The position numbers were made by a program, and so were the translations under genes. Shown one piece after another: positions 23,732 through 63,346 of a stretch of DNA of 64,000 nucleotides. How positions within the stretch are numbered: position 1 is the first letter of the stretch; each line of letters opens with the position of its first letter. The notes below the pieces were generated by a model. That model ran no database searches. It was not told where the DNA came from and saw only the letters and a list, made by a program, of their open reading frames with translations. Source of the stretch: Microgenomates group bacterium GW2011_GWC1_46_15 (GTDB lineage: Bacteria; Patescibacteriota; Microgenomatia; UBA1400; UBA12028); NCBI GenBank assembly GCA_001002285.1, contig LCLX01000003.1, positions 76,915 to 140,914 on the forward strand, given 5' to 3'.

Positions 23732-25447
23732 TTACATCGAACTTGTTGTTTCGTCCGATCCTGCGCTCACCGTCTCGATTGCTTCGCCGGAGCGCGCAAG
23801 CGTCTTGCGCCATGGATCCATTTTCCCCCAGATTTTCTTGAGGATATATAACTCTTCTACGTGGAGCACCAATGCAAATATAATATATGCGCCCATGCCA
23901 ATCAGGCTTACAACACCCGTTAACATCAGCAGTCCAAAGGTTCGCGTGGTGTCAAAAATAACGTTATCCAAAAGCTTCATGGGAAAATAGAGGCCGATTG
24001 CCATAAGCAGGGCCGCCGCAAACATTTTTGCCTGCGGACCAACAATCTTCTGCAAAGAAAACTGCACTTTCGCGTGCAACAACAAAAACAACGCCACTGC
24101 TTCAAAAAATCCTGTTGCTGCGATAGATACCGCAAGCCCAACCAATCGCACATTTGCGGTCGTATCGCCCACATATGTGATGTACCACCCCATCAAGACG
24201 CCCAACACCATCGAGAGCAACGACACAAAGAATGGTCGGCGCGTATCGTGCATCGCATAAAATCCGCGAACGAGTACGTGTGTCATTGCCTGCGCCGCAA
24301 CCGAAAGCGCCATCACGCCAACCAATCTTCCAGTTAGTACTGTGTCAGCCCACGGAAAATTTTTTGCCCCGAATGCGAAACGAACAATCGGAATGCGCAA
24401 AATCAATAATAAAACCGATGCAGGTAACGCAAAAAAAGTGACTTGGTGGAGCGATTGTGTGAGAAGCGCGCGGAATTTATCCATGTCCCCCTCGCTTGTT
24501 TCTTTTGCCAAAAACGGCAATGCGGCTTGGCCAATTGGCACGCCGAACACGCGGATCGGGATGGTCATAAGCCGCTGGGCAAAACGCATGAGTGTTAAAT
24601 TAGCACCAGTAATCGAAGTGATAAAAAAGGTTAAAAAATATGGCTGAATGAGGTCAATCCCCTCACCTAACGCGCGGGGCAACGTGAGCCGCATCACATC
24701 GTGCACTCCGGCATGTTTCCATAGGATAGAAAAGTAGTACCGGAATCCCAGTTTCATCGCGAGTGGAATTTGCAGTGCCATGTGCGCGAACGCACCCAGC
24801 AATACGCCATACACCGGGCCAAAAATACCAAAATACCTGCTGAGTACAACCGTGCCAAAAATGATGCCGAGGTTGTACACTACGGGCGATAACGCGGGAA
24901 TAATGAATCGCTGATACGACTGAATCATGCCGGACATAAAGTTTGAGACCGCAAAAAAGAACTGCGCAAACAACATGATGCGCGTCATGCTTGCCGCGAG
25001 CGTTACTTGTGATTCAGAAAATCCCGCACCAGTCATAAACCGGATGATTTGCGGCGCAAAAATAAACACGACGGTTCCCGCGCACACAAATAACAACAGC
25101 ACTATGTTAATGACACTCGAGGCCATATGAAATGCGTCACGTTCGTCTTTATGTTTGTACTTCGTGAACACTGGAATAAACGCCGCGGAAAACGCACCAA
25201 CGACTAACAATTGGAATACTAAATCAGAAGGCTGAAACGCAACCCAATACGCGTCTAATTGTTCCTGTGTTTTTGTTGTTGGATTGTAAAAGGTTGAAGC
25301 AAGCAAACGATAACTCAGAAGACCGGTGAGCGATGATAATAATACCGATGCCGTCAAAATTGCCGCCGCAGAAAGAATCGAAGTCTGCTGTTGCTCGAGC
25401 CATTGTTTTGCGCCGTTTTGGAAATAATTGAACATCCACTTAAACAT
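23732..25447 (-). CDS. murJ: Lipid II flippase MurJ (MviN)
   Basis: About 14 TM. Conserved N-terminal GAFSAAFIPVF block typical of MurJ. Confidence 0.75.
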   Translation of the reverse strand: MFKWMFNYFQNGAKQWLEQQQTSILSAAAILTASVLLSSLTGLLSYRLLASTFYNPTTKTQEQLDAYWVAFQPSDLVFQLLVVGAFSAAFIPVFTKYKHKDERDAFHMASSVINIVLLLFVCAGTVVFIFAPQIIRFMTGAGFSESQVTLAASMTRIMLFAQFFFAVSNFMSGMIQSYQRFIIPALSPVVYNLGIIFGTVVLSRYFGIFGPVYGVLLGAFAHMALQIPLAMKLGFRYYFSILWKHAGVHDVMRLTLPRALGEGIDLIQPYFLTFFITSITGANLTLMRFAQRLMTIPIRVFGVPIGQAALPFLAKETSEGDMDKFRALLTQSLHQVTFFALPASVLLLILRIPIVRFAFGAKNFPWADTVLTGRLVGVMALSVAAQAMTHVLVRGFYAMHDTRRPFFVSLLSMVLGVLMGWYITYVGDTTANVRLVGLAVSIAATGFFEAVALFLLLHAKVQFSLQKIVGPQAKMFAAALLMAIGLYFPMKLLDNVIFDTTRTFGLLMLTGVVSLIGMGAYIIFALVLHVEELYILKKIWGKMDPWRKTLARSGEAIETVSAGSDETTSSM

Positions 25448-25601
25448 GAATGCATTAAATCATCGCTTTTCTGATTTAGCTAGAGGGGTTTTTCTCCATG
25501 TCGCATGATGTTCTCCAGAGTGCTTCGGGTTTTTGTAGTGTTGTTGTTTTTTTCTGCATCCTATACAGTGATAGCAGGCTTAGCGATAGGCAATTTTTGT
25601 T

Positions 25602-27011
25602 ATGAAACTGTCCGAACTCTTAAAGAAGAAAATCCCGACCATTCTCGGCCTTGTTTTCCTTGGCGGAGGTCTGGTGGTTGGGCTACTCGTACTTGGTCAG
25701 GGAACCGGCGGATTCTTGCCAAAAGCCAGTCCAGAAACAACGCCAAAACAACTCCGCATTACGAATATTACCGACAGTGCATTCACCGTTTCCTTTTTAA
25801 CCGACACCGCGGTGCCCGGGTACGTGAAGTATGGCACCGACCAAGGCCAACTTAAGACACAGGTGTCCGACGACCGCGATCAACTCACAGGAGCGGTGGG
25901 CCAGTTTACAACGCACCACATTACTCTGCGCAACCTTTCGCCCGCAACAAAGTATTTTTTTACGATTGGCACTGCAAGCCGGACAGTCTACACCGATGGT
26001 GGAAATCCGTATAGTACGACAACCGCGCCAAGAGCAACCGGCACGCCGGACGCGCTCACGGTGTATGGAAGCGTACTCACGAGAGCCGCAACGCCGGCGC
26101 AAGACAGTATCGTGTATGTGTCTGTTGATGGCGCGTCCCCGCTTTCATCGCTTGTAAAATCATCCGCAGGATGGGCCATTCCCCTTTCCACCGCACGCGC
26201 GACCGATCTCAAATCGTTTGCGCCCATTACCACGCAAAGCACATTGAACATTTTTGTGCAGGGAAAAGATGCCGCACAAACGTCACGCGTTACCGCGCTG
26301 GTGAAAGATGCCCAACCGGTTGCCGCGATCACGCTTGGACAGTCGCAGGATTTAACGCAAGGCGCGGGTACGCAAACAACAACGGGGGCGACGGGTGATA
26401 CGTCGCAATTTTCCGCGAGCCAACTCAACTCTGCTACAGAGTCAACAACTTCTGGTGGAACGAATGGAAGTTCTAACACCATTCAATTTTTAAATCCTTC
26501 GCAAAACGGCGAAGAGGTGAACACAACAAAACCAGAGATTCAAGGAAAGGCGCCCGCTTCAACGACGCTCATAATCAAGGTCGAGTCCGATCCCGTGTAT
26601 ACCGGAACAGTGCAAACCGATGCGCAAGGAAACTGGACGTACACGCCACCGGCGAATCTTACTCCGGGAGAGCATACTGTAACCGTGAGTTATACCGATG
26701 CCGGTGGTGTTTTGCGATCGGAAAAACGCACATTCTTAGTGTTGGCAAGCGGTTCGAGTTCTTTGCCCGCGCTTACGTCAACTCCATCTGCTACGCCACT
26801 GCCGCGTGTGTCTACGCCAGCAACAGGATCCGGTATTCCACGCGCGGGAAGCACTGGACAAACATTCGCACTTTTATTTGCCGGCTTGTTCTTTATCCTT
26901 GGTGGAGCGTTGTATTGGCAAAAATCACTTGCATATATGGCCGCGGACGAACGAACAATGCAATCAGTTTCGCTTGACGACAATAACCAGGAACCCTATG
27001 CTGAAAGATAG
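25602..27011 (+). CDS. Secreted/surface protein with FN3/Ig-like beta domains and a C-terminal IPRAGSTGQ + TM segment
   Basis: N-terminal signal-anchor. Thr/Ser/Gly-rich beta-rich repeats. C-terminus ...GIPRAGSTGQTFALLFAGLFFILGGALYW. Confidence 0.55.
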   Translation: MKLSELLKKKIPTILGLVFLGGGLVVGLLVLGQGTGGFLPKASPETTPKQLRITNITDSAFTVSFLTDTAVPGYVKYGTDQGQLKTQVSDDRDQLTGAVGQFTTHHITLRNLSPATKYFFTIGTASRTVYTDGGNPYSTTTAPRATGTPDALTVYGSVLTRAATPAQDSIVYVSVDGASPLSSLVKSSAGWAIPLSTARATDLKSFAPITTQSTLNIFVQGKDAAQTSRVTALVKDAQPVAAITLGQSQDLTQGAGTQTTTGATGDTSQFSASQLNSATESTTSGGTNGSSNTIQFLNPSQNGEEVNTTKPEIQGKAPASTTLIIKVESDPVYTGTVQTDAQGNWTYTPPANLTPGEHTVTVSYTDAGGVLRSEKRTFLVLASGSSSLPALTSTPSATPLPRVSTPATGSGIPRAGSTGQTFALLFAGLFFILGGALYWQKSLAYMAADERTMQSVSLDDNNQEPYAER

Positions 27012-27017
27012 AAAAAC

Positions 27018-29147
27018 ATGAGCGATACAACAGTCCTGCCACCACTCACTCCGCAAACACCATCAACGCCACAGGTGCCGCAGATGACTCCTGCGTCAAC
27101 GCCACTCATGCCAACACCGCCCGCCGAGGTGTTCGGTGATGATATAAAAAGTGATATACCCTCAATAAAACCATCGTCGGTAACGCCACTTGTTTCCACT
27201 CAACCACCGGTATCAACCCCACCACTCACCAAGCCCGCTGATACACACACTTCACTCGATCAAGCACTCGCCGACCTCGAAAAAGAAGCGATGAAGCTTG
27301 CAGGAGATGAAGGAAAACAAACAAAAGAAGTTCAACCAAAGATTGCTGAATCAAAATCTGTAGAGAAGCCAGTTGAAAAAATTGGTGAAAAACTTGCTGA
27401 GCCTGCGCCGATGAAACAAGAGCTTCCCTCACTATCTAATGATTTAGAAAAGCCTTTTGTTGTTACTCCAAAAACAGACACGCTTCCACCATTGCCCCCC
27501 ACTTCTCCCGTCATTAAACCCATGATTCAGCTTGCTGAAAAACCAGCGGTAAAACCAGTAGCTCCTGTTACGCCAGGCGCCGGAATGGAAACACTCAAAG
27601 CGCACACATCATCCACAACATCCGTGTTTGATACCAAAATGGAAAGTGTAGAAGAGAAACCAACCGTTACTCCCCCTGTTACTTCTCAGCCAGTAGAAAA
27701 AGGAAAGAAGAAGGAAAAAGATACTACTGTGGAAAGTAGTGCGGATAGTGGTTCTGGAAAAAAGAAAAAAGGATTCGTAAAGAAAATTGTTGCTGCCGCG
27801 GCGCTAGCGGTACTCGTGATTGGGTTAGGTGTTGGTATTTTTGTTGCACAACAATCGCAGGATGTGAGACAACAAGCTGCTTCTGGCTGCATTATTGTAA
27901 ATGGCGGAACAAAAGATGCTGGTATTTGGTGTGCTAATGGTGATTGGATAAAACACTGTGGGGATGCTGTTAATGTTCCATCAGATGAAGCTATGAAGGC
28001 TTGTGAAGACAAAGTGAATGAGTTAAATGGTGTTACAGAACCAGTACCCCCCACTAATGACCAATCCTCAACTACAACTAGATGTACCGCCAAGGATGGT
28101 TCTCTCGGAGAAACGTGTGGGGACTTAAGCAAGTGCGATATCGCTGGAGGATGTAACCCTGCTTGTGGAAGTGGCACAAGAGATGGAAAAATTTGCGACA
28201 TACCAAACGGGTACTGTACATCAGGTTATTCTTGTCGTCCTGGGAGCAATTCTGTCAATGTGAAAAAATGTGATGGGAATCAATGTGTTAATTCATGGTG
28301 TGATACGGCAGATGTTGGTACAGATAGATGTAAAACATGTTCAAGTAACTCAGAGTGTACCGTAGATAATAGTAGTCTCCCCACATGTGCAACCGGTCTT
28401 GACTGTAACCTCCCAGGAGACCGATTTCCAACGGGAGCCATAAGTTGCGCGAGTCCCGTTAGTGGAAAGACAATGTCTTGTTGTCCCGCTGGATATAAAA
28501 GAAATAGTCTAGATCCTACAACAAATTACTGTGTCCCCAGTACAAGCGGGAATTCCTGTCCCAACGATTCTTCAAAACAAATTGCAAAATGCTATAAGTT
28601 TGTGTGTCCAAATGGATGCGAACTCAATAAGGATGACCCTAATGGTGTTGAAGCCTGGAGATGTAGCACTTCTACTCCTGGTGTACAAATCCAGGAACTT
28701 TCCGGAGCTGCTTGTCTTTCTGCTTCTCTTAATGGACAGTGCGGTCAAATCGACATGATTGATACCCAAGGAAACTATTGCGGATATACTGCCTCAGGGT
28801 ATAACTGTGGTGGAAGCTGCCAAGGTAACACACCCCCCTTATCCAACCCTCCCGACGAATCCCCTCCTCCAACAAACCCACCGGGTGCTCCCATGTGCCA
28901 GGGAATTGCGAAAGACATAACCGCGCCCAAAGCCGGTGACCAAGTTGCGTTCACGTGTACCCAATCCACCGACGCAACCCGGTACGAGTTCCGATACAGG
29001 GTCGGCAGTGGCGCGTTTACCGCGCTCGATCCGCTCAACGCAACCGCGAGAACATCCAAATCACTTACTGTACAAGACGGCACGTATGATGTGCAATGTC
29101 GCCCATGTACTAACAACACATGTGCAAGTTGGAGCACTGCAAACTAA
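27018..29147 (+). CDS. Type II membrane protein: about 250 aa Pro/Lys/Glu-rich disordered N-terminus, single TM, Cys-rich ectodomain
   Basis: Low-complexity PTPP/KPVEK repeats. KKKKGFVKK basic patch before the TM (AAAALAVLVIGLGVGIFV). About 60 Cys in the C-terminal 430 aa. Confidence 0.55.
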   Translation: MSDTTVLPPLTPQTPSTPQVPQMTPASTPLMPTPPAEVFGDDIKSDIPSIKPSSVTPLVSTQPPVSTPPLTKPADTHTSLDQALADLEKEAMKLAGDEGKQTKEVQPKIAESKSVEKPVEKIGEKLAEPAPMKQELPSLSNDLEKPFVVTPKTDTLPPLPPTSPVIKPMIQLAEKPAVKPVAPVTPGAGMETLKAHTSSTTSVFDTKMESVEEKPTVTPPVTSQPVEKGKKKEKDTTVESSADSGSGKKKKGFVKKIVAAAALAVLVIGLGVGIFVAQQSQDVRQQAASGCIIVNGGTKDAGIWCANGDWIKHCGDAVNVPSDEAMKACEDKVNELNGVTEPVPPTNDQSSTTTRCTAKDGSLGETCGDLSKCDIAGGCNPACGSGTRDGKICDIPNGYCTSGYSCRPGSNSVNVKKCDGNQCVNSWCDTADVGTDRCKTCSSNSECTVDNSSLPTCATGLDCNLPGDRFPTGAISCASPVSGKTMSCCPAGYKRNSLDPTTNYCVPSTSGNSCPNDSSKQIAKCYKFVCPNGCELNKDDPNGVEAWRCSTSTPGVQIQELSGAACLSASLNGQCGQIDMIDTQGNYCGYTASGYNCGGSCQGNTPPLSNPPDESPPPTNPPGAPMCQGIAKDITAPKAGDQVAFTCTQSTDATRYEFRYRVGSGAFTALDPLNATARTSKSLTVQDGTYDVQCRPCTNNTCASWSTAN

Positions 29148-29162
29148 CAAAAAGATAACACT

Positions 29163-30422
29163 ATGACATTAAAACCAAAAACACGGGCGCTTCTTTTGAT
29201 TGCAGGATCGCTGTTGACTGTGATTCTTGTCGTTGCGACCGTGATTATTTCTCTGCGGTTGAAAAATCAAGGCAGCCGATCGGTAACCCCAACAACACCG
29301 GAATCAAAACCTTCCGCGGATGTTACCGCGTCATGCGCGCTTACGTTTACAGTGGGAACGCAACTTATTCAATGTGATGTTCCAACTATATACAAAAATG
29401 ATTCTCGGAATAGTTCTGGAATATATTTTACTTCTCCTAATGACATTATTGACCCAACAAAAACAAATTTTTCTCCTGGACAAATAATAGTTCTTAAGCT
29501 TCCCATAAAAAATGAAGAAGATGATTTGGAGTATCCAACTGCCGCATGGACTGATGTATTAAGTACACAGCTAACATTTGTTGACGGTGGTAGTGGATGT
29601 ACATACGAACAATCTAATCGTACTGTCACATGCCACACCGGAAATATGCTTTCTTCTTTTATGAGCTGGTTTCGTGTCCGTATAAATGATAGTGCAACTG
29701 GAAAAATAACAAATACTGCAACTATTACCCCGGGAGGATCCGACCCAAGTTCCTGTAGTGTTGAAATTACCATTAGTAGTGCCCCCACCCCGACGCCCAC
29801 TCCAACGCTTGACGCCGGTTTCCTCGTCCAAAAATTCAATGATAAAAATAATAATAAGGCGCGCGATAGCGGTGAAGCAGGTTTGGATTGGGACTTCGAG
29901 TGGAAACTCAATGGCGATAACAACTTCCGCGCGTATCAAACGTATGTCGACAAAAACGGTGAAGGTGGTCGCGTTGGTGGGCTGAAAGACGGTGACAAAG
30001 TCCACATCCGCGAAAAAAGTAAGAGTGGTTGGAGCGCGACAAACGGCACCGAGCAAACATTTACCGTCAAACTTGGTGAAACATATGTTGCATATTTTGG
30101 AAACCGCCAACCAACAACGGTTGGGTGCAACAATAGCTGTTCTGCAGATACTGATTGTGCCTCCGGACTCTTCTGTTCCAAAGCAACTGGCTCCACAAGT
30201 GGCGTGTGCCGCAACAATGCGTGTGTAAACAAAACAAACTGTACGTGTGATGTTGTTACCTCAACCTCAACACCAACAACGATCGTAAAAGCTTCTCCTA
30301 CTCCGACTTCAGTGCCCGAAGCGCCTCTGCCAGAAGCAGGTTCAACCGGTCAATCAATACTGTTATTCCTCGGCGGAACCACGATGACGGTTCTTGGAGT
30401 TATTGGACTGCTTGCGCTGTAG
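29163..30422 (+). CDS. Secreted/surface protein with a C-terminal LPEAGSTGQ + TM segment
   Basis: N-terminal signal-anchor. TPTPTPT linker and a Cys-rich knot. C-terminus PLPEAGSTGQSILLFLGGTTMTVLGVIGLLAL. Confidence 0.55.
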   Translation: MTLKPKTRALLLIAGSLLTVILVVATVIISLRLKNQGSRSVTPTTPESKPSADVTASCALTFTVGTQLIQCDVPTIYKNDSRNSSGIYFTSPNDIIDPTKTNFSPGQIIVLKLPIKNEEDDLEYPTAAWTDVLSTQLTFVDGGSGCTYEQSNRTVTCHTGNMLSSFMSWFRVRINDSATGKITNTATITPGGSDPSSCSVEITISSAPTPTPTPTLDAGFLVQKFNDKNNNKARDSGEAGLDWDFEWKLNGDNNFRAYQTYVDKNGEGGRVGGLKDGDKVHIREKSKSGWSATNGTEQTFTVKLGETYVAYFGNRQPTTVGCNNSCSADTDCASGLFCSKATGSTSGVCRNNACVNKTNCTCDVVTSTSTPTTIVKASPTPTSVPEAPLPEAGSTGQSILLFLGGTTMTVLGVIGLLAL

Positions 30423-30654: not shown

Positions 30655-30676
30655 GCCTGCGAGAAATCATCTTTTT

Positions 30677-30727
30677 GAGGAACTCAGGGTTCGGGGTCCC
30701 CTGGAGACGAAAAAAGATGATCTCGAG
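30677..30727. repeat. Conserved hairpin-forming intergenic repeat, copy 1 (GAGGAACUCAGGG-N4-GGGUCCYCUGGAGACGAAAA)
   Basis: About 85% identical to 41205-41256. Imperfect inverted repeat CUCAGGG...CCCUgGAG. Lies immediately 3' of the tRNA on the minus strand. Confidence 0.6.
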
Positions 30728-30733
30728 CGTATG

Positions 30734-30806
30734 TGGGAGCGCTTGGATTTGAACCAAGAACCTTGAAGGTATAAGCTTCCTGCGCTAACCGTTGCGCCAC
30801 GCTCCC
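30734..30806 (-). tRNA. tRNA-Ile (anticodon UAU), no encoded CCA
   Basis: Hand-folded cloverleaf. Acceptor GGGAGCG/CGCTCCC, D-arm GCGC-AACGGTTA-GCGC, anticodon arm GGAAG-CTTATAC-CTTCA (U33, UAU, A37), T-arm CTTGG-TTCAAAT-CCAAG, discriminator A73. Confidence 0.75.
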
Positions 30807-30911: not shown

Positions 30912-31193
30912 ATGAATAAAAAAATTCGTACACAAAATATTATTAAAGTCGGGAATAGCCTCGCCGTTACATTGGATAAAGCCTTTGTTGACGCCTACAA
31001 ATTAAAAGCAAAACAGCAGGTTTACATACTTTATACTCAGTATCCCCCGCGAATTATTGTGAAACCCGATTTTTCTCAAGGACCATCACTCACTCAGTCC
31101 GATATAGAAAAATTGCCAAAAGAGTTCCGTAATTGGGTGAAAAAATTCCTCAAGGAAGATCACGAAGCTCTTAAGGCTTTAACACATCTATAG
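30912..31193 (+). CDS. AbrB/MazE-like swapped-hairpin DNA-binding protein (putative)
   Basis: IKVGNSLAVTLDKAFVD motif resembles AbrB/SpoVT-type domains. 93 aa. Confidence 0.4.
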   Translation: MNKKIRTQNIIKVGNSLAVTLDKAFVDAYKLKAKQQVYILYTQYPPRIIVKPDFSQGPSLTQSDIEKLPKEFRNWVKKFLKEDHEALKALTHL

Positions 31194-33521
31194 TTTCGCC
31201 CGCACCGTAATTTCCGCCTCAACAATCTCCTTGTGCTTTCCGTACTTCAACAGTGACAACTCCTTAATCATCTCCGCAACTTTGGGGTTCTTCATTGCAT
31301 TTTCTTTCGTCATATCTCGAGTCAAATCCATACTAAATGCTGGCACCGGTTCATTATTCACAATTGTCTTGGTATATACATGGAATCGCTCAATATTGGT
31401 CAAATCGCTCTCATTAAACACTGGAGCAAACTCGTGTTGCAAAAAGTTTGCGTCCGGCACACCAATGCGGAAACTAATCAATGTACCGACGTTGCCAAAC
31501 ACCGCGTTCTTTACGTCTTCCTCGATCTGCGCGACAAACTGGTTTGCCACGATGAGGTTCAATTTGTACTTGCGGGCTTCGGACAAAATTGTCGCAAAAT
31601 CTTGTGTTGCAAAGTTTTGGAACTCATCAACATAGAGATAAAAGTCGCGGCGTTGCTCGAGCGGAACGTTAACACGCGACATAGCGGCTGCCAAAATCTT
31701 TGGCACCATAATCAAGCCCAAAAACTTGGCATCTTCTTCTCCAAGCGCACCTTTGGACAAGTTCACGAGTAAAATCTTGCCCTCATCCATCACTTCGCGT
31801 AGATTAAACGCGGACTTGCTCTGGCCGATAATGTTGCGCATTGTTTTGTTCGTGATAAACCGGCCAAACTTGGACACGATGTAGTCAAGCACCTCCGACT
31901 TATGGAAGTCGCTTGTTTGGGCAATTTGGTCGGTCCAGTACCGGCGCACAACGGGGTCTTTCACTTTTGGCAGTAAATCCTGCAAGAACTTGCTGTCCGT
32001 CAGCACGCGCACCAACTCAATAAACGTGCTTCCCGGCTCGGCCATGATCGTGAGCATAGCGTTGCGGATCGCGTGTTCAAACCGCGGGCCAATGATACCG
32101 GTTTTGTGTGGATCGTAGAGTTTGTACATCAGCCCAATAATCGAGCCAGCCACAAAGTGCATCTGTTCTTCGGTTTCTGCTTCCATCATGTTCAAACCCA
32201 TAGGACGGTCGGTGTTTGACGGGTTAAAGTAAATAACATCCTCCGCGCGCTCGGGCGGCATGAGCAAGAGTAAATCCTCAACGAGGTCGCCGTGCGGATC
32301 AATCACCGCCATACCTTTGCCCGCGCGGATATCCTGCAATACCATGTCTTTCAAAAACTCAGACTTCCCGGCGCCGGTTTTACCAACAATGTACATGTGG
32401 CGCTGGCGGTCTTTTTCGGCAATATAAATATTGCGTGAGGAACCGCGGTACACACTGCGCCCCAAGAACAGGCCGGAGGTCGGGATTTCGGAAGGAGCCG
32501 GCGCGTTTTTCGCTTTGAGCCAATAAATATGGTGCGTTTCAACCGTTTTGTTCGGGAAGTGGATCATCGTCGCTAACTCTTCGCTGTTGAACACCGTAAC
32601 GCCCCGGCCAAACAACGGCATGTACCGGTAAATGAAGTCAATCATGAAGAGATGTTTGAACCAAATACGGGTCTTTTTGAGATGATTGTGCGCAGACGAG
32701 TACTGCGCGAACGACCCCACAATGTTTGTGAGGTGCGAGTTTGCCGCCATCGCGCTGGTTGAAGAAACAACGATGCGGATTGCAGTTCGGAAACCGGATT
32801 TGCCAAGTTTCGTGTCGATAGAGTCCAAAGACTTGGGATCGTGTGTATAGCTCGCCTTCTCGGGATCTGCTTCTTTTTTCTTTGTTGAAGCAAGGTAACT
32901 TGCACCACGTCTCTGCCATCCTTCACCCGCGGGCTGGAGAACATACTGCACAATCGCCCCCTCCCCCTGCTGCATCTTGGAAAGCGCCGATGTTAACAGC
33001 GATAATCCGTCGGTTGGCAACTCTTTAAATGTTTTAATCGGGAAAAACTCAGACTCTTTGAGTGTGAGCGCAGCAAACGCGACTTTGCCTCCCTCGCTGA
33101 AAATATTTGGTTCATCAACTTCATTGATTTCCGCGCCCGGATATGCCCCATTGATCTGTTTTTCAATCAAGTCGCGCAAGTTCCGCGGACAGGTAAAGTA
33201 AAACTTGATTTCATCGTGAAGCGCGATCACTTCGAACGCGAAGTGGTCTTCGGCGTGGAGAAAATGGAAAAATCCTGATTTCTTTAACGAGTGAAGCGAG
33301 GCAAACATCTGTTCAGCCGCGTCAATTTTAATTTCGTTGTCTTTTGGAAGCGCGACCAACAAATGAATGAACTGCAGACTGTACTCCTCACGGTCGCGGT
33401 GCTTCCACCACTGGATAAATGCATACACAAACGCCGCGAAAAGCGCCACACTCAGCACAAGCACTACTACCGTACTCAATAATGCGGTCATCCGAACGAC
33501 AAAAAGATCAAGTTGATTCAT
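31188..33521 (-). CDS. Membrane-anchored P-loop ATPase of the HerA/FtsK/VirD4 (T4CP-like, DUF87-like) superfamily
   Basis: N-terminal TM. Walker A IVGKTGAGKS followed by VIDPHGDL. Walker B LYVDEFQNF. 777 aa. Confidence 0.55.
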   Translation of the reverse strand: MNQLDLFVVRMTALLSTVVVLVLSVALFAAFVYAFIQWWKHRDREEYSLQFIHLLVALPKDNEIKIDAAEQMFASLHSLKKSGFFHFLHAEDHFAFEVIALHDEIKFYFTCPRNLRDLIEKQINGAYPGAEINEVDEPNIFSEGGKVAFAALTLKESEFFPIKTFKELPTDGLSLLTSALSKMQQGEGAIVQYVLQPAGEGWQRRGASYLASTKKKEADPEKASYTHDPKSLDSIDTKLGKSGFRTAIRIVVSSTSAMAANSHLTNIVGSFAQYSSAHNHLKKTRIWFKHLFMIDFIYRYMPLFGRGVTVFNSEELATMIHFPNKTVETHHIYWLKAKNAPAPSEIPTSGLFLGRSVYRGSSRNIYIAEKDRQRHMYIVGKTGAGKSEFLKDMVLQDIRAGKGMAVIDPHGDLVEDLLLLMPPERAEDVIYFNPSNTDRPMGLNMMEAETEEQMHFVAGSIIGLMYKLYDPHKTGIIGPRFEHAIRNAMLTIMAEPGSTFIELVRVLTDSKFLQDLLPKVKDPVVRRYWTDQIAQTSDFHKSEVLDYIVSKFGRFITNKTMRNIIGQSKSAFNLREVMDEGKILLVNLSKGALGEEDAKFLGLIMVPKILAAAMSRVNVPLEQRRDFYLYVDEFQNFATQDFATILSEARKYKLNLIVANQFVAQIEEDVKNAVFGNVGTLISFRIGVPDANFLQHEFAPVFNESDLTNIERFHVYTKTIVNNEPVPAFSMDLTRDMTKENAMKNPKVAEMIKELSLLKYGKHKEIVEAEITVRAKL

Positions 33522-34703: not shown

Positions 34704-36299
34704 TTATTGCGCGAACAAGCCTCGGAAGACTCTGTAGTACCAGGGAGTCTGCTGGCTTCCTCCTGGAATCGTTCTTGGAACAGGAATGTACCGTATTGGG
34801 TTATACCAGGGTAACGGAGTGGGTGTTGTGACTTGCTTTGTTGTTGGTTTTGATGTTGGTTTCGGTGTCGCACACACTCCGCTGTATGAAACTTTTACTC
34901 CGTTTTGTTCTGCCGTACACGCATTGCTATATGTTCTGCCGTCCGCACCACATACAGGCATGTATTCCTGCGAACATACTCCATTTGTTAATGGTGTGGA
35001 AATCGGTGTTGCGTATGGGTACGGTGTGGCATAAGGGTACGGAGTCGCGTACGGAGGATATGGCGTAGTGTATGGGTACGGTGTGGCATATGGAGGGTAT
35101 GGCGTAGCGTATGGATATGGAGTGGTGTATGGATAAGGTGTTGATAACGGCGGAGGTGTTACAAGAATCGGCGTTGCATACGGACGGGAAGTTGCATACG
35201 GATATGGTGTGACTGGTGGACGAGGAGAAGGACACATAAGTACCGGCTCGCAAGGAGCTTTTATACACGTAACCTGTGCGTAGTAACATCCACTCGATGT
35301 GGGAGTAGCTTTTGATGTTGGAAGAGGGCTCGATATTGGAGTAGGCATTGGGGTAGATTGCGGAGTCGCTCTTGGTGTTGAAATCGGAGTAGCGGATGTT
35401 GTTAACTTCGACAAATCAACCTCAACGACCGTACTAGGGAGAATACCCATCACTTTTTGGCTGACTATTTTTGTACTCATTCTCACTGGAGGAGCTTGAG
35501 TTTTTGGAACCGCGGCAAGATCTGAGGCGGCGTATACCATAACGAGAGGCAATCGGGTGTGCAACGCCACCTGAACAGCCGCATCTTTAGCATTCTTTAC
35601 ACGCCCTTTGAGTGTTACCACATTTTTTACCACTGTTATCCCGTCAAAAGCAAAGAAATCGTACAACGCCCCCTTTGTCATAACAAAACCACTCCCCTTG
35701 TAGACCACGGACTCTGTTGATGGAGGTGATGAGGGTGGAGTCGTTCGTTGTTGCGAAGATGGTGTTTTTCCGTCTTCAACAGCTACCGCTGCGTATACCG
35801 GTTGGACTACACTTATTGGTTTTGTCGTTTCTATCGAGATACTTGCCTCAACGGAAGTAATCGTGATGTTTTTGTTTAGCTGAGACGCCTCCATATACAG
35901 AGCTTGTCCGGTCCCGTATTGGGGAGATGGCTTCTCTGCTTCCGTTATTTCTATTTTTGCGGATTGATCTGCGCTTGCTTGTGATCGATTATCAGTGGGA
36001 ACTTGTAGAAGATCCAGTCCGACAATACCACCAGAAATAATAATGGCCGCGGTTATACCCCCAATCAGATAATTTTTTATAATGTTTGAAGATGGACCAG
36101 TGGTTTTTGGTTGAGGTTCCGGAGTGGGTTCTATAACGGGTTCAACTGGTTGGATTGGTGCTATTTCTGGGGCTGGCGATACTACTGGTGGAGCAGGAAT
36201 TGAAGCATCAACGGGAGACAAAGAGCTCTCGGGTACTAGATGTTGTGGGCTGGAGTTTGGATCTACGGGCACTTGCCCGGAGAGTACTGGATCGTCCAT
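34704..36299 (-). CDS. Type II membrane/surface protein with Pro-rich N-terminus, PYPYATP tandem repeats and a C-terminal Kazal-type domain
   Basis: TM GGITAAIIISGGIVGL after a Pro-rich N-terminus. Repeats (A/T)TPYP(P)Y x about 9. C-terminal CSQEYMPVCGADGRTYSNACTAEQNGVKVSYSGVC fits the Kazal consensus PVCG[SA]DGxTYxNxC...C. Confidence 0.6.
   Translation of the reverse strand: MDDPVLSGQVPVDPNSSPQHLVPESSLSPVDASIPAPPVVSPAPEIAPIQPVEPVIEPTPEPQPKTTGPSSNIIKNYLIGGITAAIIISGGIVGLDLLQVPTDNRSQASADQSAKIEITEAEKPSPQYGTGQALYMEASQLNKNITITSVEASISIETTKPISVVQPVYAAVAVEDGKTPSSQQRTTPPSSPPSTESVVYKGSGFVMTKGALYDFFAFDGITVVKNVVTLKGRVKNAKDAAVQVALHTRLPLVMVYAASDLAAVPKTQAPPVRMSTKIVSQKVMGILPSTVVEVDLSKLTTSATPISTPRATPQSTPMPTPISSPLPTSKATPTSSGCYYAQVTCIKAPCEPVLMCPSPRPPVTPYPYATSRPYATPILVTPPPLSTPYPYTTPYPYATPYPPYATPYPYTTPYPPYATPYPYATPYPYATPISTPLTNGVCSQEYMPVCGADGRTYSNACTAEQNGVKVSYSGVCATPKPTSKPTTKQVTTPTPLPWYNPIRYIPVPRTIPGGSQQTPWYYRVFRGLFAQ
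35000..35260. repeat. Coding tandem repeat (about 24-27 nt units, Tyr/Pro-rich) within the 34704-36299 gene
   Basis: Repeated tatgggtacggtgtggcata / tatggcgtagYgtatgg units are visible in the nucleotide sequence. Confidence 0.7.
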
Positions 36300-37907: not shown

Positions 37908-40244
37908 TTAGAGTTTGCACTTGCTGTACCCACACTGTAGGCAGAGATTGCACCCCTCTTGATTTTGCATGAGCGCGCCGCACTCCGGACACTTTTCTCC
38001 TTCTTCGGGAATATCAAAAACATCTTCACGCAGTACTTCTTGCTTTGTGAGCGTGGAAAAATCCTTTCGCTGCGCAAGCGGTGTAACTCGGTGCTGACTC
38101 TGCATAATTTGATGTGATTTTTTTGGCGTTGAAGCCTCTGCTGGTGAAGGTGCCGCTTGGGTTTGGTGCTGAACAGAAAGAACCTGTGTTGCCTTCGATG
38201 TATCGCGGTACACCGTAATACCTTTGCACCCCAATTTCCAGGCGAGTAGGTAGGCGCCGCGGACATCCTCAAGCGTTGCGTTGGCGGGAAAGTTAATTGT
38301 TTTACTCACCGCATTATCGGTATGATCTTGAAACGCCGCCTGCATGCGCACGTGCCACTGCCAATCAATATCATGCGAGGTAACAAATACGCGTTTGAGC
38401 TCGGATGAAACGATTGTGCTGTGCTGTACTCCACCGGTTTGTGTTACTTCAGCAACAATCGCATTGAACTCACCATTACTCCCGACATGTTCTTTCAACG
38501 CTCGCTCAAAATATTTATTAATGTATGTGAGGCCAGCGGTGTCAACAACATTCTTTACGTAACTCAGCGCAAAAATCGGCTCGATGCCACTGCTACAGTC
38601 CGCCGCCATTGAAATTGTTCCCGTTGGTGCAATTGTTGTAATTGCGACGTTGCGGAACTTGCGCGGTTTCTTTTTGTGTCCATAGGTATGTGTAACCGGA
38701 TCATATCCTTTGGCAAACCAACTGTTTTTCCATTGTGGAAACGCGCCTTTTTCTTTTGCCAATTTTTCCGAAGCGCTCCACGATGATTCTTGTACGTGTT
38801 TCATGATTTTCTTTGCTAAAGCAACGCCTTCATCGGAGTTATATGGAATGTTGAGTTGAAGCAGAAGGTCGGCCCAACCCATTACACCCAACCCAATCCG
38901 CCGGTGTTGGTGCACGGTTTTTGTGATTTGCGGAAGAGGGTATGTGCACGCGTCAATCACGTTGTCTAACATACGAGTCGCGATCGCGGTAACAGTGGCT
39001 AAACGGTCCCAGTTTATGGTGGTGTGACCTGTTTTTTCGTCTTTTAGTGCAAATGCAGAAAGATTGATTGATCCGAGGTTACACGAATCAAATGAGTGCA
39101 AAGGTTGTTCGCCACAGGGATTAGTCGCATAAATCGGCCCAACAGAGTCTAACAATGGGTTGTTGCGGTTGATCACATCCCAGTAAATCATCCCAGGATC
39201 CCCCGTTCTCCACGCAAGCGATATGATCTGATCCATCAACATACGCGCCAAAATATTTTGGACTGGTTTGTTGGTACGCGGATTCACGAGTGCAAACTCT
39301 TTATCTTTTTCCACAGCACGCATAAACGCATCCGTTGTCCCAACCGAAATGTTGAAGTTGCTAATCTCCCCCTCTTCACTCTTGCACGTAATGAACTCCA
39401 AAATGTCCGGGTGATGAACGGTTAAAATACCCATGTTGGCACCGCGTTGTTTCCCACCCTGCATAACTTGGCGCGTTGCAATGTCAAACACTTTCATGAA
39501 TGAAACCGGGCCTGTAGCAAAACCGCCGGAAGATTTTGTAATCCCATCGCCTTTGGGGCGTAAGCGTGAAAAATCAAAACCCGTCCCACCACCTTTTTGA
39601 TGCACAAGTGCCGTCCACTTCACCGCATCAAAAATACCTTCCATACTGTCTTCAACTGGAAGGACAAAGCAACTTGCAAGCTGATTTTGTGGTGTTCCCG
39701 CGTTATTGAGTGTACGACCACCAGGCAGAAATTCAAATTTTGTCATGACGTCATAAAATTTTTCTTCCCAGATTTTCTTGTGCTTTTTTTCTACAGTGGC
39801 AAGTGTGTGGGCAACACGGCGGAACATTTGGCCGGGAGTTTCCATCGGCTTTCCATCCTGATCGTGAACAAGATACCGCCGTTCAATGACTTTGAGCTGA
39901 TTGATATTGAGATTGAGATCATTCTCTACTCCAATAACGGTCTCCGCTTTGCGGATTTTGGCATGTTCAGCGCGATACAAAATGTATGCTTTTGCGGTCT
40001 TAAAATGGCCAGCGGCCATGAGCACTTGCTCAACCGTATCCTGCACTTGTTCAACGGTAACCAGTTCTTTGCGGACAACAATCACTTTTTCGATAATGCC
40101 CGCGGCGATTCCCGCTAACCGTTGTGCTTCTTTGTCATCAAACTCGCCCGTTGCAATTGCTGCTTTGTGAAGCGCCAACGCGATTTTAACTTTTTCAAAC
40201 GGCATTTCGCGCCCATCGCGCTTAACGATTGTCATGGAGCTCAC
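37908..40244 (-). CDS. nrdJ: Class II (adenosylcobalamin-dependent) ribonucleotide reductase, paralog 1
   Basis: ATP-cone-like N-terminus. Radical-site loop TNPCGEQPL. C-terminal CxxC...CxxC zinc ribbon (CPECG...CLQCGYSKC). Confidence 0.85.
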   Translation of the reverse strand: MSSMTIVKRDGREMPFEKVKIALALHKAAIATGEFDDKEAQRLAGIAAGIIEKVIVVRKELVTVEQVQDTVEQVLMAAGHFKTAKAYILYRAEHAKIRKAETVIGVENDLNLNINQLKVIERRYLVHDQDGKPMETPGQMFRRVAHTLATVEKKHKKIWEEKFYDVMTKFEFLPGGRTLNNAGTPQNQLASCFVLPVEDSMEGIFDAVKWTALVHQKGGGTGFDFSRLRPKGDGITKSSGGFATGPVSFMKVFDIATRQVMQGGKQRGANMGILTVHHPDILEFITCKSEEGEISNFNISVGTTDAFMRAVEKDKEFALVNPRTNKPVQNILARMLMDQIISLAWRTGDPGMIYWDVINRNNPLLDSVGPIYATNPCGEQPLHSFDSCNLGSINLSAFALKDEKTGHTTINWDRLATVTAIATRMLDNVIDACTYPLPQITKTVHQHRRIGLGVMGWADLLLQLNIPYNSDEGVALAKKIMKHVQESSWSASEKLAKEKGAFPQWKNSWFAKGYDPVTHTYGHKKKPRKFRNVAITTIAPTGTISMAADCSSGIEPIFALSYVKNVVDTAGLTYINKYFERALKEHVGSNGEFNAIVAEVTQTGGVQHSTIVSSELKRVFVTSHDIDWQWHVRMQAAFQDHTDNAVSKTINFPANATLEDVRGAYLLAWKLGCKGITVYRDTSKATQVLSVQHQTQAAPSPAEASTPKKSHQIMQSQHRVTPLAQRKDFSTLTKQEVLREDVFDIPEEGEKCPECGALMQNQEGCNLCLQCGYSKCKL

Positions 40245-41163: not shown

Positions 41164-41204
41164 AATATGTGTCTGTAATACCTAGATAAGATAAAAATTT
41201 CTTC

Positions 41205-41256
41205 GAGGAACTCAGGGCGCAGGGTCCTCTGGAGACGAAAAGAGATTTTTATCGAG
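41205..41256. repeat. Conserved hairpin-forming intergenic repeat, copy 2
   Basis: GAGGAACTCAGGGCGCAGGGTCCTCTGGAGACGAAAAGAG, about 85% identical to 30677-30727. Lies immediately 3' of nrdJ paralog 2 and 5' of the Nudix gene. Confidence 0.6.
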
Positions 41257-43500
41257 CTACATCGTGCACTTACTCCACCCGCAGTCCGGACAGCTTACAC
41301 ACCCACTTTCAAACTTCAATGAGGCAGAGGCACACTCGGGGCAGATTTGTTTTTCTCCTGATGCTGGCTTCGTTGTATGTGTGTGTATATCCGAACGCAT
41401 TGTGGCATCCTTTGAGAGTTTGCTTTCCTTCCCCGCTACATTGAGCACTTGATCCATTTTACTGCCGTCGCGGTAGATCGTAATGCCTTTAAGCCCAAGT
41501 TTCCATCCAAGCATGTACGCTTTCTTCACGTCTTCAACCGTTGCGTTGTGTGGAAAGTTGATCGTTTTACTTACTGAGTTATCAATCCACTTTTGCCACA
41601 CCGCTTGAATTTTGACGTGCCACTCGGGAGAAATATTGTGCGTGGTTGCAAATACACGCTTCGCTTCTTTGCTTAATTCTTTGACATGTTCTACGCCACC
41701 GTCCTGTAAAACTTGCTGCATAATGCGGTTACGTGTGACTTCATCAAAATTTTGCTGAAGATACTCACCAAACACTGGATCGGCGATGGTAAATTCCCGA
41801 GTCGGTGCGTTTGCATGATTATCCTCATTAAAACTGCGGCGCACTTGGACAAGTGAAAATACCGGCTCAATACCAGAACTTGTATTTGCTAACAACGAAA
41901 TTGTTCCCGTTGGGGCAACCATCATCACCGCACAGTTGCGATATCGTTCAGAAGTTCCAGCATACACCGAAACATCAAAATTGGGGAATGGGCCACGAAT
42001 TTTTCCAAGCTCCAGTGAAGCCTCTTCTGCTTTCTTCCGGATGAATTTTGCGAGATGGTCAGCAACGCGCACAGCTTCTTCACTGTTATATGGAACCCTC
42101 ATTCGATATAGTATGTGCGCAAAACCCATCACTCCTAAACCGATACGTCGGTTTCCGTCTTTCACCATCTGCCTGATTTCATCCAACGCATACGTGTTCA
42201 CTTCAATCATGTCATCCAAGAAACGGACACCAAGCTTGACCGATTTTTCGAGATCGTCCCAATCAATTTCCCAATCGCCTTTTTTGTTTTTGACAAGGTG
42301 GCGGTTGAGATCGATTGATGTTAGATTACACGATTCATAGGGCAATAATCCAATTTCTCCACAGGGATTCGTTGCATCCATAATCCCAATTGACGGGGTT
42401 GGATTGTCTTCCTGAAGACGGTCTAAAAACGCCAAACCCGGATCGCCGGTGGCCCACGCGTGTTCTGCAATCAGCTCAAAAATCTCCCTTGCCTTTATGG
42501 TCTTCCACACTTCGCCATTGCGGGGATTAAGTAAATCCCATTCTTTGTTTGCCTGCACGGCCTCCATGAACTTGTTGGACACTCCAACCGAAATATTGAA
42601 GTTTTTAATCGTGCCATCCTGATCTTTCAGTGTAATGAAATCAACAATATCGGGATGATCTGCATTCAAAATCGCGATGTTTGCCCCTTGCCGCTTTGCT
42701 CCCTGTAAAATTTGAGCAAGCGCGGCAGAAAATGCTCTCAAAAAGTCTACCGGCCCGGATGCTGCTTTCGGAATATTTTTGACTTTGTCTCCGTGCGGTC
42801 GGATTCTCGAAAAATTAAATCCTGTTCCGCCATTGTTTTTATGCACAACCGCGGCATCACCAAGTGTTTTAAAAATCTTTTGGATACTGTCTTCTATCGG
42901 CAGAACGAAACAACTGGATAACTGACCTGTTCCTCCGGGATTTCCCGCTTCAAACATCGCTTTGCCCGCGCACACAAACTTTAAGTTCGCCATGCGCTCG
43001 TAGAACTTCCTGGCTGTTTCATCAACAATACCGTTCTCCCCCCACTGAATTTCTGCCTTCGCCATGTGGCGGGCAACACGCCACAACATTTCGCCCGGTG
43101 TTTCAACAACTTTCCCGTTCATGTCGGTGCGGAGGTAGCGTTTTTTTGCAATTTCGTGCGCGGTATCGGTTAAATTCGGCTCAGTAATAGCAAGTTTTTT
43201 GTGTTTCTGTTGTTTTTTCTCACCGTACAAAATGTAGTACTTCGCGGTTGCAAAGTATCCCGCTTCGGCAATGGTTGGCTCAACAATGTCGCGGATTTGT
43301 TGAACGGTAAGCGTGTTTTCTTTTACTACCGCACGCGCGAGTTTCACTTGAACTTTTTTTGTGATTTCAGTAGCAATTTTTTTATCGTACTCCCCCGTAT
43401 CTTTTCCAGCAGCCTCAATAGACGCGGTGATCTTCTCCAGAGTAAAAGGCTTCTTTGTGCCATCCCGTTTGATGACAAACTGTATTGATGACGTTTGCAT
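41257..43500 (-). CDS. nrdJ: Class II (adenosylcobalamin-dependent) ribonucleotide reductase, paralog 2
   Basis: TNPCGEIGLLPYESCNL radical loop. ATP-cone-like N-terminus. C-terminal Zn ribbon. Confidence 0.85.
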   Translation of the reverse strand: MQTSSIQFVIKRDGTKKPFTLEKITASIEAAGKDTGEYDKKIATEITKKVQVKLARAVVKENTLTVQQIRDIVEPTIAEAGYFATAKYYILYGEKKQQKHKKLAITEPNLTDTAHEIAKKRYLRTDMNGKVVETPGEMLWRVARHMAKAEIQWGENGIVDETARKFYERMANLKFVCAGKAMFEAGNPGGTGQLSSCFVLPIEDSIQKIFKTLGDAAVVHKNNGGTGFNFSRIRPHGDKVKNIPKAASGPVDFLRAFSAALAQILQGAKRQGANIAILNADHPDIVDFITLKDQDGTIKNFNISVGVSNKFMEAVQANKEWDLLNPRNGEVWKTIKAREIFELIAEHAWATGDPGLAFLDRLQEDNPTPSIGIMDATNPCGEIGLLPYESCNLTSIDLNRHLVKNKKGDWEIDWDDLEKSVKLGVRFLDDMIEVNTYALDEIRQMVKDGNRRIGLGVMGFAHILYRMRVPYNSEEAVRVADHLAKFIRKKAEEASLELGKIRGPFPNFDVSVYAGTSERYRNCAVMMVAPTGTISLLANTSSGIEPVFSLVQVRRSFNEDNHANAPTREFTIADPVFGEYLQQNFDEVTRNRIMQQVLQDGGVEHVKELSKEAKRVFATTHNISPEWHVKIQAVWQKWIDNSVSKTINFPHNATVEDVKKAYMLGWKLGLKGITIYRDGSKMDQVLNVAGKESKLSKDATMRSDIHTHTTKPASGEKQICPECASASLKFESGCVSCPDCGWSKCTM

Positions 43501-45599: not shown

Positions 45600-46060
45600 T
45601 ATTTTTTCTGTTCATCAATCAGTTTGTGTATTTCCGCACGGAAATCTTCAATGGTTTGGAAATCCCGGTACACGCTCGCGAACAACATATACGAAACGGG
45701 ATCTATTTTACGCAAACGGTTCATCACAAGTTTGCCAATCTCCCAGCTCTTGACTTCCGTTGAGTCTTTTACCCGCAGTTTTTGCTCAATTCCGTCAATA
45801 AGGGCTTCAATTTCTTCCATGGAAATCGGCCGTTTCCACGTGGCTTTCATCAGGCCTTTTTTTACTTTTTCCCGGTCAAATGGCTCCCGCTCTCCATTTT
45901 TCTTGATGACAAAGAGGTCAATCCCCTCGGCCCGTTCATATGTTGTAAACCGTTTGCCACATTTTGTGCATTGGCGGCGGCGGCGCATACTCCGCTGGTC
46001 CGACCCAATGCGGCTTTCCAAAACAGAGGTCTCATCGTGTGTGCAGTATGGACATCGCAT
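45599..46060 (-). CDS. nrdR: Transcriptional repressor NrdR
   Basis: N-terminal Zn ribbon MRCPYCTHDETSVLESR...CTKCGKRFTTYE plus an ATP-cone. Start at MRCPYC. Confidence 0.9.
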   Translation of the reverse strand: MRCPYCTHDETSVLESRIGSDQRSMRRRRQCTKCGKRFTTYERAEGIDLFVIKKNGEREPFDREKVKKGLMKATWKRPISMEEIEALIDGIEQKLRVKDSTEVKSWEIGKLVMNRLRKIDPVSYMLFASVYRDFQTIEDFRAEIHKLIDEQKK

Positions 46061-46124
46061 ACGTGTTGCAGTCGCGGACGACATGCTCCAATAAACTAAA
46101 TCTAGTAGGCAGGGGTTCAGTGAA

Positions 46125-46170
46125 ACACTATTCGTAGTGTTGGTCAACATATCACACACTATCTGAATGT
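46125..46170. promoter_or_regulatory. Tandem NrdR boxes upstream of nrdR-nrdJ operon
   Basis: 16 bp palindrome ACACTATTCGTAGTGT (46125-46140) matches the NrdR-box consensus acaCwAtATaTwGtgt. A second degenerate box cACACTATCTGAATGT lies about 30 bp downstream (46155-46170). Confidence 0.55.
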
Positions 46171-63069: not shown

Positions 63070-63346
63070 CGCGGGGTAGTGTACGGCTGCACGTGAGGCT
63101 CAAGTGGGCCACGCCCGTAGAAATACGGAGTGAATTTCGGCTATATCGGTGAAACCTTCAGGCGAAAGCACAGGCAATACCGAGGAAAGATCTCCGGAGT
63201 AATCCAGAGAAATCCGTAGAGACTATACGCCGAACTTGTCGTTAGTTTGCAAAAACTAGCAGATAAGAAGATATAGTCCGACACTCTTGGAAACAAGAGA
63301 AACAGATGCATAATCTCGCAGACAAGGTTCGACTCCTTGCCCCGCA
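63070..63346 (+). ncRNA. ssrA: Structured ncRNA with tRNA-like 3' end; best guess tmRNA (ssrA)
   Basis: A 417 bp non-coding gap sits in a compact genome. The 3' end has a T-arm CAAGG-UUCGACU-CCUUG followed by CCCCGC(A), complementary to 5' GCGGGG at 63070. Promoter lies upstream and a terminator downstream. The tag ORF is not confidently identified. Confidence 0.45.

Follow-up and report, generated by a model that had tools for sequence, protein, structure and literature searches.

A cysteine-rich, membrane-anchored modular surface protein encoded in an adhesin-type operon of a Microgenomates group bacterium

The open reading frame (ORF) at positions 27018-29147 (+ strand) of a 64,000-nucleotide stretch of the Microgenomates group bacterium GW2011_GWC1_46_15 (contig LCLX01000003.1), hereafter the window, encodes a type II single-pass membrane protein of 709 aa from its ATG start codon, which belongs to an unannotated family of the ultra-small bacteria of the Candidate Phyla Radiation (CPR). 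We regard it as solid that this protein, hereafter the target, is a member of a Microgenomates-type CPR family and a modular surface protein held by a membrane anchor and probably stabilised by disulfides. We propose, with a probability of roughly 0.6, that it faces hosts or phages as the membrane-anchored part of an adhesin or envelope module associated with pili. Because of strict operon linkage, it is probable that the target acts together with two wall-sorted adhesin-like proteins, encoded by the upstream gene fn3up and the downstream gene DUF11dn; an ancestral coupling to the alignment complex of PilN and PilO is plausible, although it does not hold in every lineage. In the mechanism that we envisage, the target would be produced from the same operon as two secreted beta-sandwich proteins whose C-termini bear sortase-like signals. 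The target's ectodomain would project from the cytoplasmic membrane, starting with a variable stalk and continuing through the cysteine-rich module A and the beta-rich module B to an fn3 domain at the far end, while a conserved peptide in its cytoplasmic tail would dock it to an intracellular partner. We propose that contact with hosts or phages is the reason why the exposed segments are swapped so quickly from strain to strain. The tie to type IV pili and the adhesive or host-contact role are what we infer from the evidence set out below.

In its NCBI record (Candidatus Pacebacteria / Microgenomates group), the target is named 'hypothetical protein'. The ORF proposed in the initial annotation is real over its full length, and the long Pro/Lys/Glu-rich N-terminus described there agrees with the composition that we obtained. 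The cytoplasmic tail (residues 1-256; 27018..27785, +) is free of Cys, rich in Pro, Lys, Thr, Ser and Glu, and ends in the basic patch KKKKGFVKK; its first 255 residues comprise 15.7% P, 12.2% K, 11.8% T, 9.4% S and 7.8% E, with 0 Cys. That the tail is truly coding is indicated by a ratio of non-synonymous to synonymous substitution rates (dN/dS) of ~0.25 relative to the gene of a sister strain (L007), by indels that remain in frame, and by the 14 and 16 stops found in the alternative two frames of the first 750 nt. The tail is under purifying selection, and it is probably disordered. It is of low complexity and not repetitive: Tandem Repeats Finder reported zero repeats within the gene, and the sequences PTPP and KPVEK, formerly described as repeats, each occur once only.

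The transmembrane (TM) segment (residues ~257-279, IVAAAALAVLVIGLGVGIFVAQQ; 27786..27854, +) forms the sole strong Kyte-Doolittle peak (2.75) and shows a dN/dS of 0.03 relative to the sister strain. It is preceded by GSGKKKKGFVKK, with KKKK beginning at residue 248, so that the single TM segment and lysine patch reported earlier were both recovered. The flanking charge is +6 on the N side and net ~0 on the C side, and every Cys of the target, beginning with residue 291, lies C-terminal to the segment. Among 80 relatives with a tail of at least 35 aa, a set selected for at least 10 Cys after the TM segment, the net flank charge averages +3.6 before the segment and +0.9 behind it, and the pooled tails hold 1 Cys altogether. 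One uncleaved segment with a positive N flank is the pattern of a type II (N-in/C-out) signal anchor, and the predicted placement of the Cys-rich part outside the cell coincides with that of the initial annotation. The surface location of the target is well supported. A lipobox was considered for AASGC (residues 287-291) and for TASC of DUF11dn, and was rejected in both cases, the Cys lying 12-25 residues past the hydrophobic segment and the motif not being lipobox-conserved. The target's C-terminus (...CASWSTAN) is without a hydrophobic segment and is not that of an LPxTG-type sortase substrate.

Two short conserved motifs lie on opposite sides of this anchor. The first is the cytoplasmic peptide SLDQALADLEK (residues 79-89; 27252..27284, +), with the family consensus (S/T/N)LD(D/E/Q)(I/V/A)L(A/S)xLE, found in 15 of the 80 family tails, where shuffled sequences would lead one to expect 0.004; in another 16, the extreme N-terminus carries a related peptide, M(x)DDILxAAQ. 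The second is the juxtamembrane motif SQDVRQQA (residues 280-287), followed by C291 (27855..27890, +), with the consensus (Q/S)QD(I/V)R(Q/K)xA...C. D282, R284, A287 and C291 are invariant in our alignment A1, and the motif is present in 69 of 97 members, with the first Cys usually 2-8 residues after it. It also stands behind ordinary signal-type segments of the giant proteins L010 (106 Cys) and L031 (118 Cys). The juxtamembrane motif may be a sorting or processing signal, and taken together the two motifs would point to further partners or processing. The only other ORF of the window that combines a Pro-rich tail, a single TM segment and the juxtamembrane motif encodes a Kazal protein (34704-36299, -), which starts with MDDPVLSGQ and continues with a Pro-rich tail, a TM segment at ~77-97 and TDNRSQA (D-x-R-x-Q-A). 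The similarity of layout between the two proteins that had been pointed out thus holds for the N-terminal anchor cassette and fails for the ectodomains, which are unrelated, that of the Kazal protein having 8 Cys. Within the Kazal gene, an imperfect tandem repeat (35004-35141; period 18/39/57 nt) codes for repeats of the YPYATP type.

At the level of the family, a word-indexed search returned five relatives only, all with the same layout as the target, and an exhaustive profile search returned 421 representatives at E<=1e-3 and 97 at E<=1e-10. Nearly all full-length members combine a Cys-rich ectodomain with one TM segment and a tail of 35-325 aa that is free of Cys. Named members belong to Pacebacteria / Microgenomates-group CPR only. 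No match to the target was obtained in Pfam or NCBIfam at E<=0.1 or in a PHROGs scan, and no Pfam family is shared across 77 members; the family is previously unannotated and lies outside Pfam coverage. A literature search on Cys-rich CPR surface proteins returned nothing relevant. Module A alone served as the query in a search for related loci, no stretch of the whole-ectodomain alignment being sufficiently conserved for this purpose.

Beyond the membrane, the ectodomain is composed of successive segments of very different conservation. The variable membrane-proximal segment (residues ~286-349, 4 Cys; 27873..28064, +) is replaced in the sister strain, and local mapping found no homologues of it outside the strain. 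Module A (residues ~350-450, 14 Cys; 28065..28367, +) is a conserved Cys-rich domain (alignment A5, dN/dS 0.095) with the pattern C..G.LG..C..L.KCDIAGGCNP.C...ICDIPNGYC.SGYSC...C..QCV..C...C..CSSNSEC, whose core CDIAGGCNP / IPNGYC is common to ~20 representatives. The beta-rich central region (residues ~451-605; 28368..28832, +) is wholly replaced in the sister strain and includes module B (~505-605), with the pattern CPND..YKFVCPNGC...WRC...GQCGQIDMID..GNYCGY...C..C. Finally, a Pro-rich linker leads to module C (residues ~626-709, 5 Cys; 28893..29144, +), an fn3-fold domain with the pattern FTC..ATRYEFRY...VQCRPC....C.SW, which is a widespread C-terminal domain (about 605-709 by local homology mapping).

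The structure prediction of the ectodomain that had been suggested at the outset yielded confident modules: in the AlphaFold2 (AF2) model, the predicted local distance difference test score (pLDDT) is 82-90 for the first half of module A, 82-93 for module B (ectodomain residues 231-318) and 91-97 for module C. The model of module C superposes on solved fn3 domains with a Foldseek probability of 1.00 (3mpc_A, TMt 0.66 and rmsd 3.0 A; 6x39, 0.64; 7y8i_C, 0.62; 1x5h, 0.51) and has an fn3 fold. Tandem-FN3 matches that span ~200 columns across modules B and C suggest that module B is also a sandwich. The family profile likewise reaches multi-fn3 proteins. At the sequence level, Pfam fn3 (PF00041) gave no match to the target at E<=0.1, and phmmer with the whole target against PDB gave noise only (E>=0.24); Foldseek against viral structures returned generic tandem-FN3 tail-fibre matches only, which are uninformative. 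The sole recognisable fold is the prokaryote-typical fn3 at the C-terminus. Module A, in turn, appears to match nothing known: its model gave no match in Foldseek against PDB (best E=9.7, at the moderate confidence of pLDDT 70.6), and its A5 profile found no PDB sequence even at E<=10, so that this conserved domain is without recognisable relatives. It is also carried by giant proteins (1140-1779 aa) encoded at other loci (L010 9153-14492, L031 2646-6218 and L016 9794-13216), far larger than the target, and is hence a mobile domain. Together, module A and the QDxRxxA motif mark a wider class of surface proteins that are very rich in Cys.

The ectodomain (residues 286-709) contains 39 Cys, or 9.2% of its residues, a count well below the figure of about 60 first given. 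Of the spacing modules that had been listed, CxxC occurs twice, CC once and CxC not at all. The possibility had been raised that the cysteines would turn out not to be conserved among homologues. In alignment A5 (14 sequences, 42-69% identity), however, conservation is complete in 5 Cys columns and reaches at least 90% in 2 others. Further module A cysteines come and go in pairs, as is expected of disulfide partners. Cysteines that are confined to the outside, conserved, and gained or lost pairwise characterise an extracytoplasmic disulfide protein, and the ectodomain is expected on this basis to be disulfide-bonded. The total Cys count is odd in 70 of 96 family members (p = 8e-6). CPR bacteria are reported to be enriched in MdbA-like oxidoreductases and VKOR (PMC6744442). 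Genes for two DsbA-like, membrane-anchored oxidoreductases with CPxC sites, for a CcdA/DsbD-like protein and for a thioredoxin reductase are present in the window itself; the initial annotation described such genes as nearby, and they are indeed in the same window, but at 21-31 kb from the target they are not neighbours.

The strain comparison, between the window strain and the L007/L008 strain, revealed a mosaic pattern. Protein identity amounts to 97.5% and 98.6% for the housekeeping proteins LepA and MurJ and to 94.6% for fn3up, and falls to 68.5% for the target and 72.7% for DUF11dn. Residues ~300-360 and ~450-600 of the target share 10-26% identity with the L007 protein and are effectively replaced, as are residues ~60-210 of DUF11dn, whereas modules A and C are under strong purifying selection (dN/dS ~0.09). 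No silent donor cassettes or repeats that would explain the segment replacement were found within the window. Such mosaic variation is the pattern expected of host- or phage-exposed surfaces.

The target is the middle gene of a same-strand trio, fn3up-target-DUF11dn, with gaps of 6 nt and 15 nt. The upstream partner fn3up (469 aa; 25602..27011, +) has an N-terminal signal/anchor, Pur_ac_phosph_N/fn3 and Big_13 Ig-like domains, no Cys, and an LPxTG-like C-terminus made of IPRAGSTGQ, a TM segment and a charged tail. It is Cys-free in all seven lineages (window, L004, L005, L009, L013, L022 and L024), unlike its two Cys-rich operon neighbours. The downstream partner DUF11dn (419 aa; 29163..30422, +) has an N-terminal signal/anchor, a DUF11/CLIPPER-like domain, a small Cys-rich module, and LPEAGSTGQ followed by a hydrophobic tail; its Pfam DUF11/CLIPPER match is sub-threshold (E=0.0049, 17.6 bits vs a cut-off of 24.6). 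DUF11, also called CLIPPER, resembles CnaA and serves as a stalk domain in fibrillar adhesins and pilins (PMC12617251). Across lineages, the corresponding C-terminal motifs are LPEAG/LPPAG/MPESG for DUF11dn and IPRAG/LPVTG/VPTSG for fn3up. The DUF11 partners (window, L005, L009, L022, L024, L033 and L034) share an invariant Cys near the N-terminal anchor (C58 in the window; motif C-(T/A/K)-L-x-F-x-(V/I)), which is the sole Cys in minimal versions of 168-211 aa. A mini-module with the pattern C..C....DC.SGL.C......G.C.N..C....C.C is common to DUF11dn (residues 322-362; 30126-30248), where it gives a sub-threshold Pfam Toxin_2 match (E=0.038), and to the target-family member P0003 (L004 8001-9719), which suggests module shuffling among the operon proteins.

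Neighbour conservation, for which the initial annotation had advised a check across CPR genomes, was analysed in other genomes and metagenomes. Among the nine distinct lineages with orthologous architecture and available flanks, a DUF11-type gene lies directly downstream of the family gene in all nine, fn3up lies upstream in seven, and pilN, pilO and a gene for a small membrane protein, designated small, precede fn3up in six. Neighbouring genes of the operon abut and often overlap by 1-17 nt. The PilN and PilO matches exceed the Pfam cut-offs, and PilN retains its N-terminal INLLP-type motif, a peptide that binds PilM in studied systems. At two related loci (L004 2751-6580 and L009 4727-8165), S20-pilN-pilO-small lies between MurJ (-) and the fn3 gene. 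At the corresponding place of the window (23732-25601), S20, pilN, pilO and small are absent and a 154-nt spacer separates MurJ from the fn3 gene, which implies deletion or relocation. A scan for promoters and terminators around the operon gave fewer matches than shuffled controls and was uninformative.

Several observations weigh against the proposed adhesin or envelope module associated with pili. MurJ adjoins fn3up in the window lineage, where pilN-pilO is not adjacent, and the distant members L033 and L034 likewise have no adjacent pilN-pilO. The pilNO-linked loci are without pilB, pilC, pilM, pilT or pilin genes, and are flanked by genes of envelope biogenesis (MurJ, UbiA and PMT-type glycosyltransferases) and by an amine oxidase gene. 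The scanned parts of the window showed no sortase gene. A physical complex of the target with its operon partners is putative; an intermolecular disulfide between an 'odd' Cys of the target and the lone Cys of the DUF11 partner was considered and then downgraded, since it failed a parity test, only 2 of 7 locus pairs being odd in both proteins. The topology was called from the positive-inside rule and Cys partitioning, the module A model is of moderate quality (pLDDT 70.6 when modelled alone, 82-90 for its first half in the full model), and the taxonomy of the family is based on few named sequences.

These observations leave room for an alternative that we consider possible, if somewhat doubtful, namely that the target is a variable adhesin or coat protein that stands alone and is functionally unconnected with type IV pili. 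The adjacency of pilN-pilO would then be an inherited gene order in one CPR clade, and the functional unit would be the target-CLIPPER pair, with or without fn3up. The DUF11 partner is indeed the only universally linked gene (9/9), pilNO is absent in the three lineages just mentioned, the pilNO-linked loci hold no other pilus genes, and cassette replacement between strains is typical of adhesins and coat proteins. However, the six-gene block is kept on the same strand, with overlapping genes, in six lineages whose family proteins are only ~25-45% identical, and such retention is hard to ascribe to inertia alone. At the opposite end, it can be speculated that the block pilN-pilO-small-fn3/Big_13-CysRich-CLIPPER is a CPR-specific envelope-spanning module that replaces the missing PilP/PilQ in monoderm S-layer cells. 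The Cys-rich protein, docked by its tail, would link PilMNO to the two wall-attached beta-sandwich proteins, and its swappable cassettes would set host specificity or phage evasion. We consider this extension unlikely as it stands. As its corollary, the N-terminal cassette (DDIL-type peptide, Pro-rich tail, TM segment and QDxRxxA) would be a new portable sorting or anchoring signal, common to CPR surface proteins that are otherwise unrelated, the Kazal protein among them.

It is considerably less probable that the target is a transmembrane receptor or an anti-sigma-like protein, comparable to RsgI/RsiV, in which the ectodomain would sense a ligand or load, the juxtamembrane motif would be cleaved (site-1 cleavage or autoproteolysis) and the freed tail would act inside the cell. 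The N-in bitopic layout, the post-TM motif conserved in 69 of 97 members, the conserved cytoplasmic peptide and the purifying selection on the tail are all compatible with this scheme. Nonetheless, no sigma factor, protease or regulator gene is linked at any examined locus, the tail has no anti-sigma or zinc-binding domain and no Cys, and the post-TM motif also follows signal-type segments that lack a cytoplasmic tail. The eukaryotic-like disulfide-knot or EGF-like modules read into the sequence at first, as an EGF/knottin/Kazal/defensin array acting as a secreted or displayed protease inhibitor or toxin, are largely refuted despite the high Cys density, the Kazal-domain protein encoded 5.5 kb away and the Toxin_2 match of the DUF11 partner: the search for EGF, anaphylatoxin and defensin patterns advised initially gave no match to the target, EGF, Kazal, ANATO, defensin and toxin families are absent from the 25 most frequently matched Pfam families listed for 77 relatives, no knottin or anaphylatoxin match was obtained in Pfam, NCBIfam, PDB-profile or Foldseek searches, module A in particular has neither a Foldseek nor a PDB-profile match, and modules B and C appear to be beta-sandwich/fn3-like.

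The target belongs with bacterial modular surface and adhesin proteins, among which it is marked out by a Cys-rich domain not recognised before, an uncommon N-terminal anchor cassette and the operon linked to pilN/pilO. Among known systems, the sortase-dependent adhesin and pilin operons of Gram-positive bacteria (Actinomyces FimA, Corynebacterium Spa) depend on MdbA/VKOR for disulfide formation. The system described here shares with them the co-encoded CLIPPER/DUF11 and fn3/Big surface proteins with LPxTG-like ends, a monoderm-type envelope, membrane-anchored DsbA/MdbA-like oxidoreductases and putative disulfide-dependent surface proteins. It departs from them in the anchor of the target, which is not LPxTG but an N-terminal TM segment that continues a long cytoplasmic tail, in having no adjacent sortase gene, in module A, to which known pilins offer no counterpart, and in the position of the operon, in most lineages, behind pilN-pilO, genes of type IV and not of sortase pili. 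With the alignment proteins of type IV pili and type II secretion systems (PilN, PilO, PilP, GspC and GspL/M), the target has in common an N-in single-pass topology, and its family, in six of the nine lineages, a place in one block with pilN and pilO. It differs from these proteins in having a much larger, Cys-rich and strain-variable ectodomain and no sequence or fold similarity (Pfam, NCBIfam, PDB and Foldseek revealed none to Pil or Gsp proteins), and the pilNO linkage is not universal. CPR bacteria are without PilQ (PMC6744442), which leaves room for lineage-specific outer components. Module C is akin to the fn3 superfamily by its fold and unlike it by its 5 Cys, by an atypical QCRPC and by making up ~12% of the protein only. 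[quoted passage not shown] Yet VSPs are type I proteins with a C-terminal TM segment, so that the topology of the target is opposite, there is no homology, and the window shows no sign of a switching gene family or silent cassettes.

Elsewhere in the window, further elements were observed. A VirD4/TraD-like coupling ATPase (TrwB_AAD_bind, DUF87 and TraG-D_C; DUF8128 according to the precomputed annotation) is encoded at 31188-33521 (-), on the strand opposite to that of the operon and two to three genes downstream of it, with no other conjugation genes seen nearby. A 50-nt element occurs in two copies that are 84% identical, one (30669-30718) just 3' of a tRNA (30734-30806, -) and the other (41197-41246) between NUDIX and ribonucleotide reductase genes; with their palindromic ends ATCTTTTT...AAAAAAGAT around GGGGTCCCC, the paired copies look like bidirectional terminator hairpins. 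The ribonucleotide reductase cluster, entirely on the - strand, comprises three large-subunit-type genes (37908-40244, 41257-43500 and 43521-45599), two of them directly tandem, and the NrdR repressor gene (45599-46159). An Rfam group I catalytic intron match is located at 63089-63300 (+), with 62.8 bits vs a gathering score of 50.

CPR bacteria, or Patescibacteria, are thought to live attached to other cells, and to our knowledge, type IV pili aside, almost nothing has been established about the molecules at their contact interface. Here we describe an unannotated family with 421 representatives that is tied to an adhesin-type operon and mostly to pilN/pilO. Segments are replaced like cassettes between strains that are otherwise nearly identical, as would be expected of surfaces that recognise hosts or act as phage receptors, and the two conserved motifs of the family offer possible handles on the sorting machinery and on an intracellular partner. 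If the link to the pilus is true, it would provide a clue to how pili cross, or join, the secretin-less envelope of CPR bacteria.

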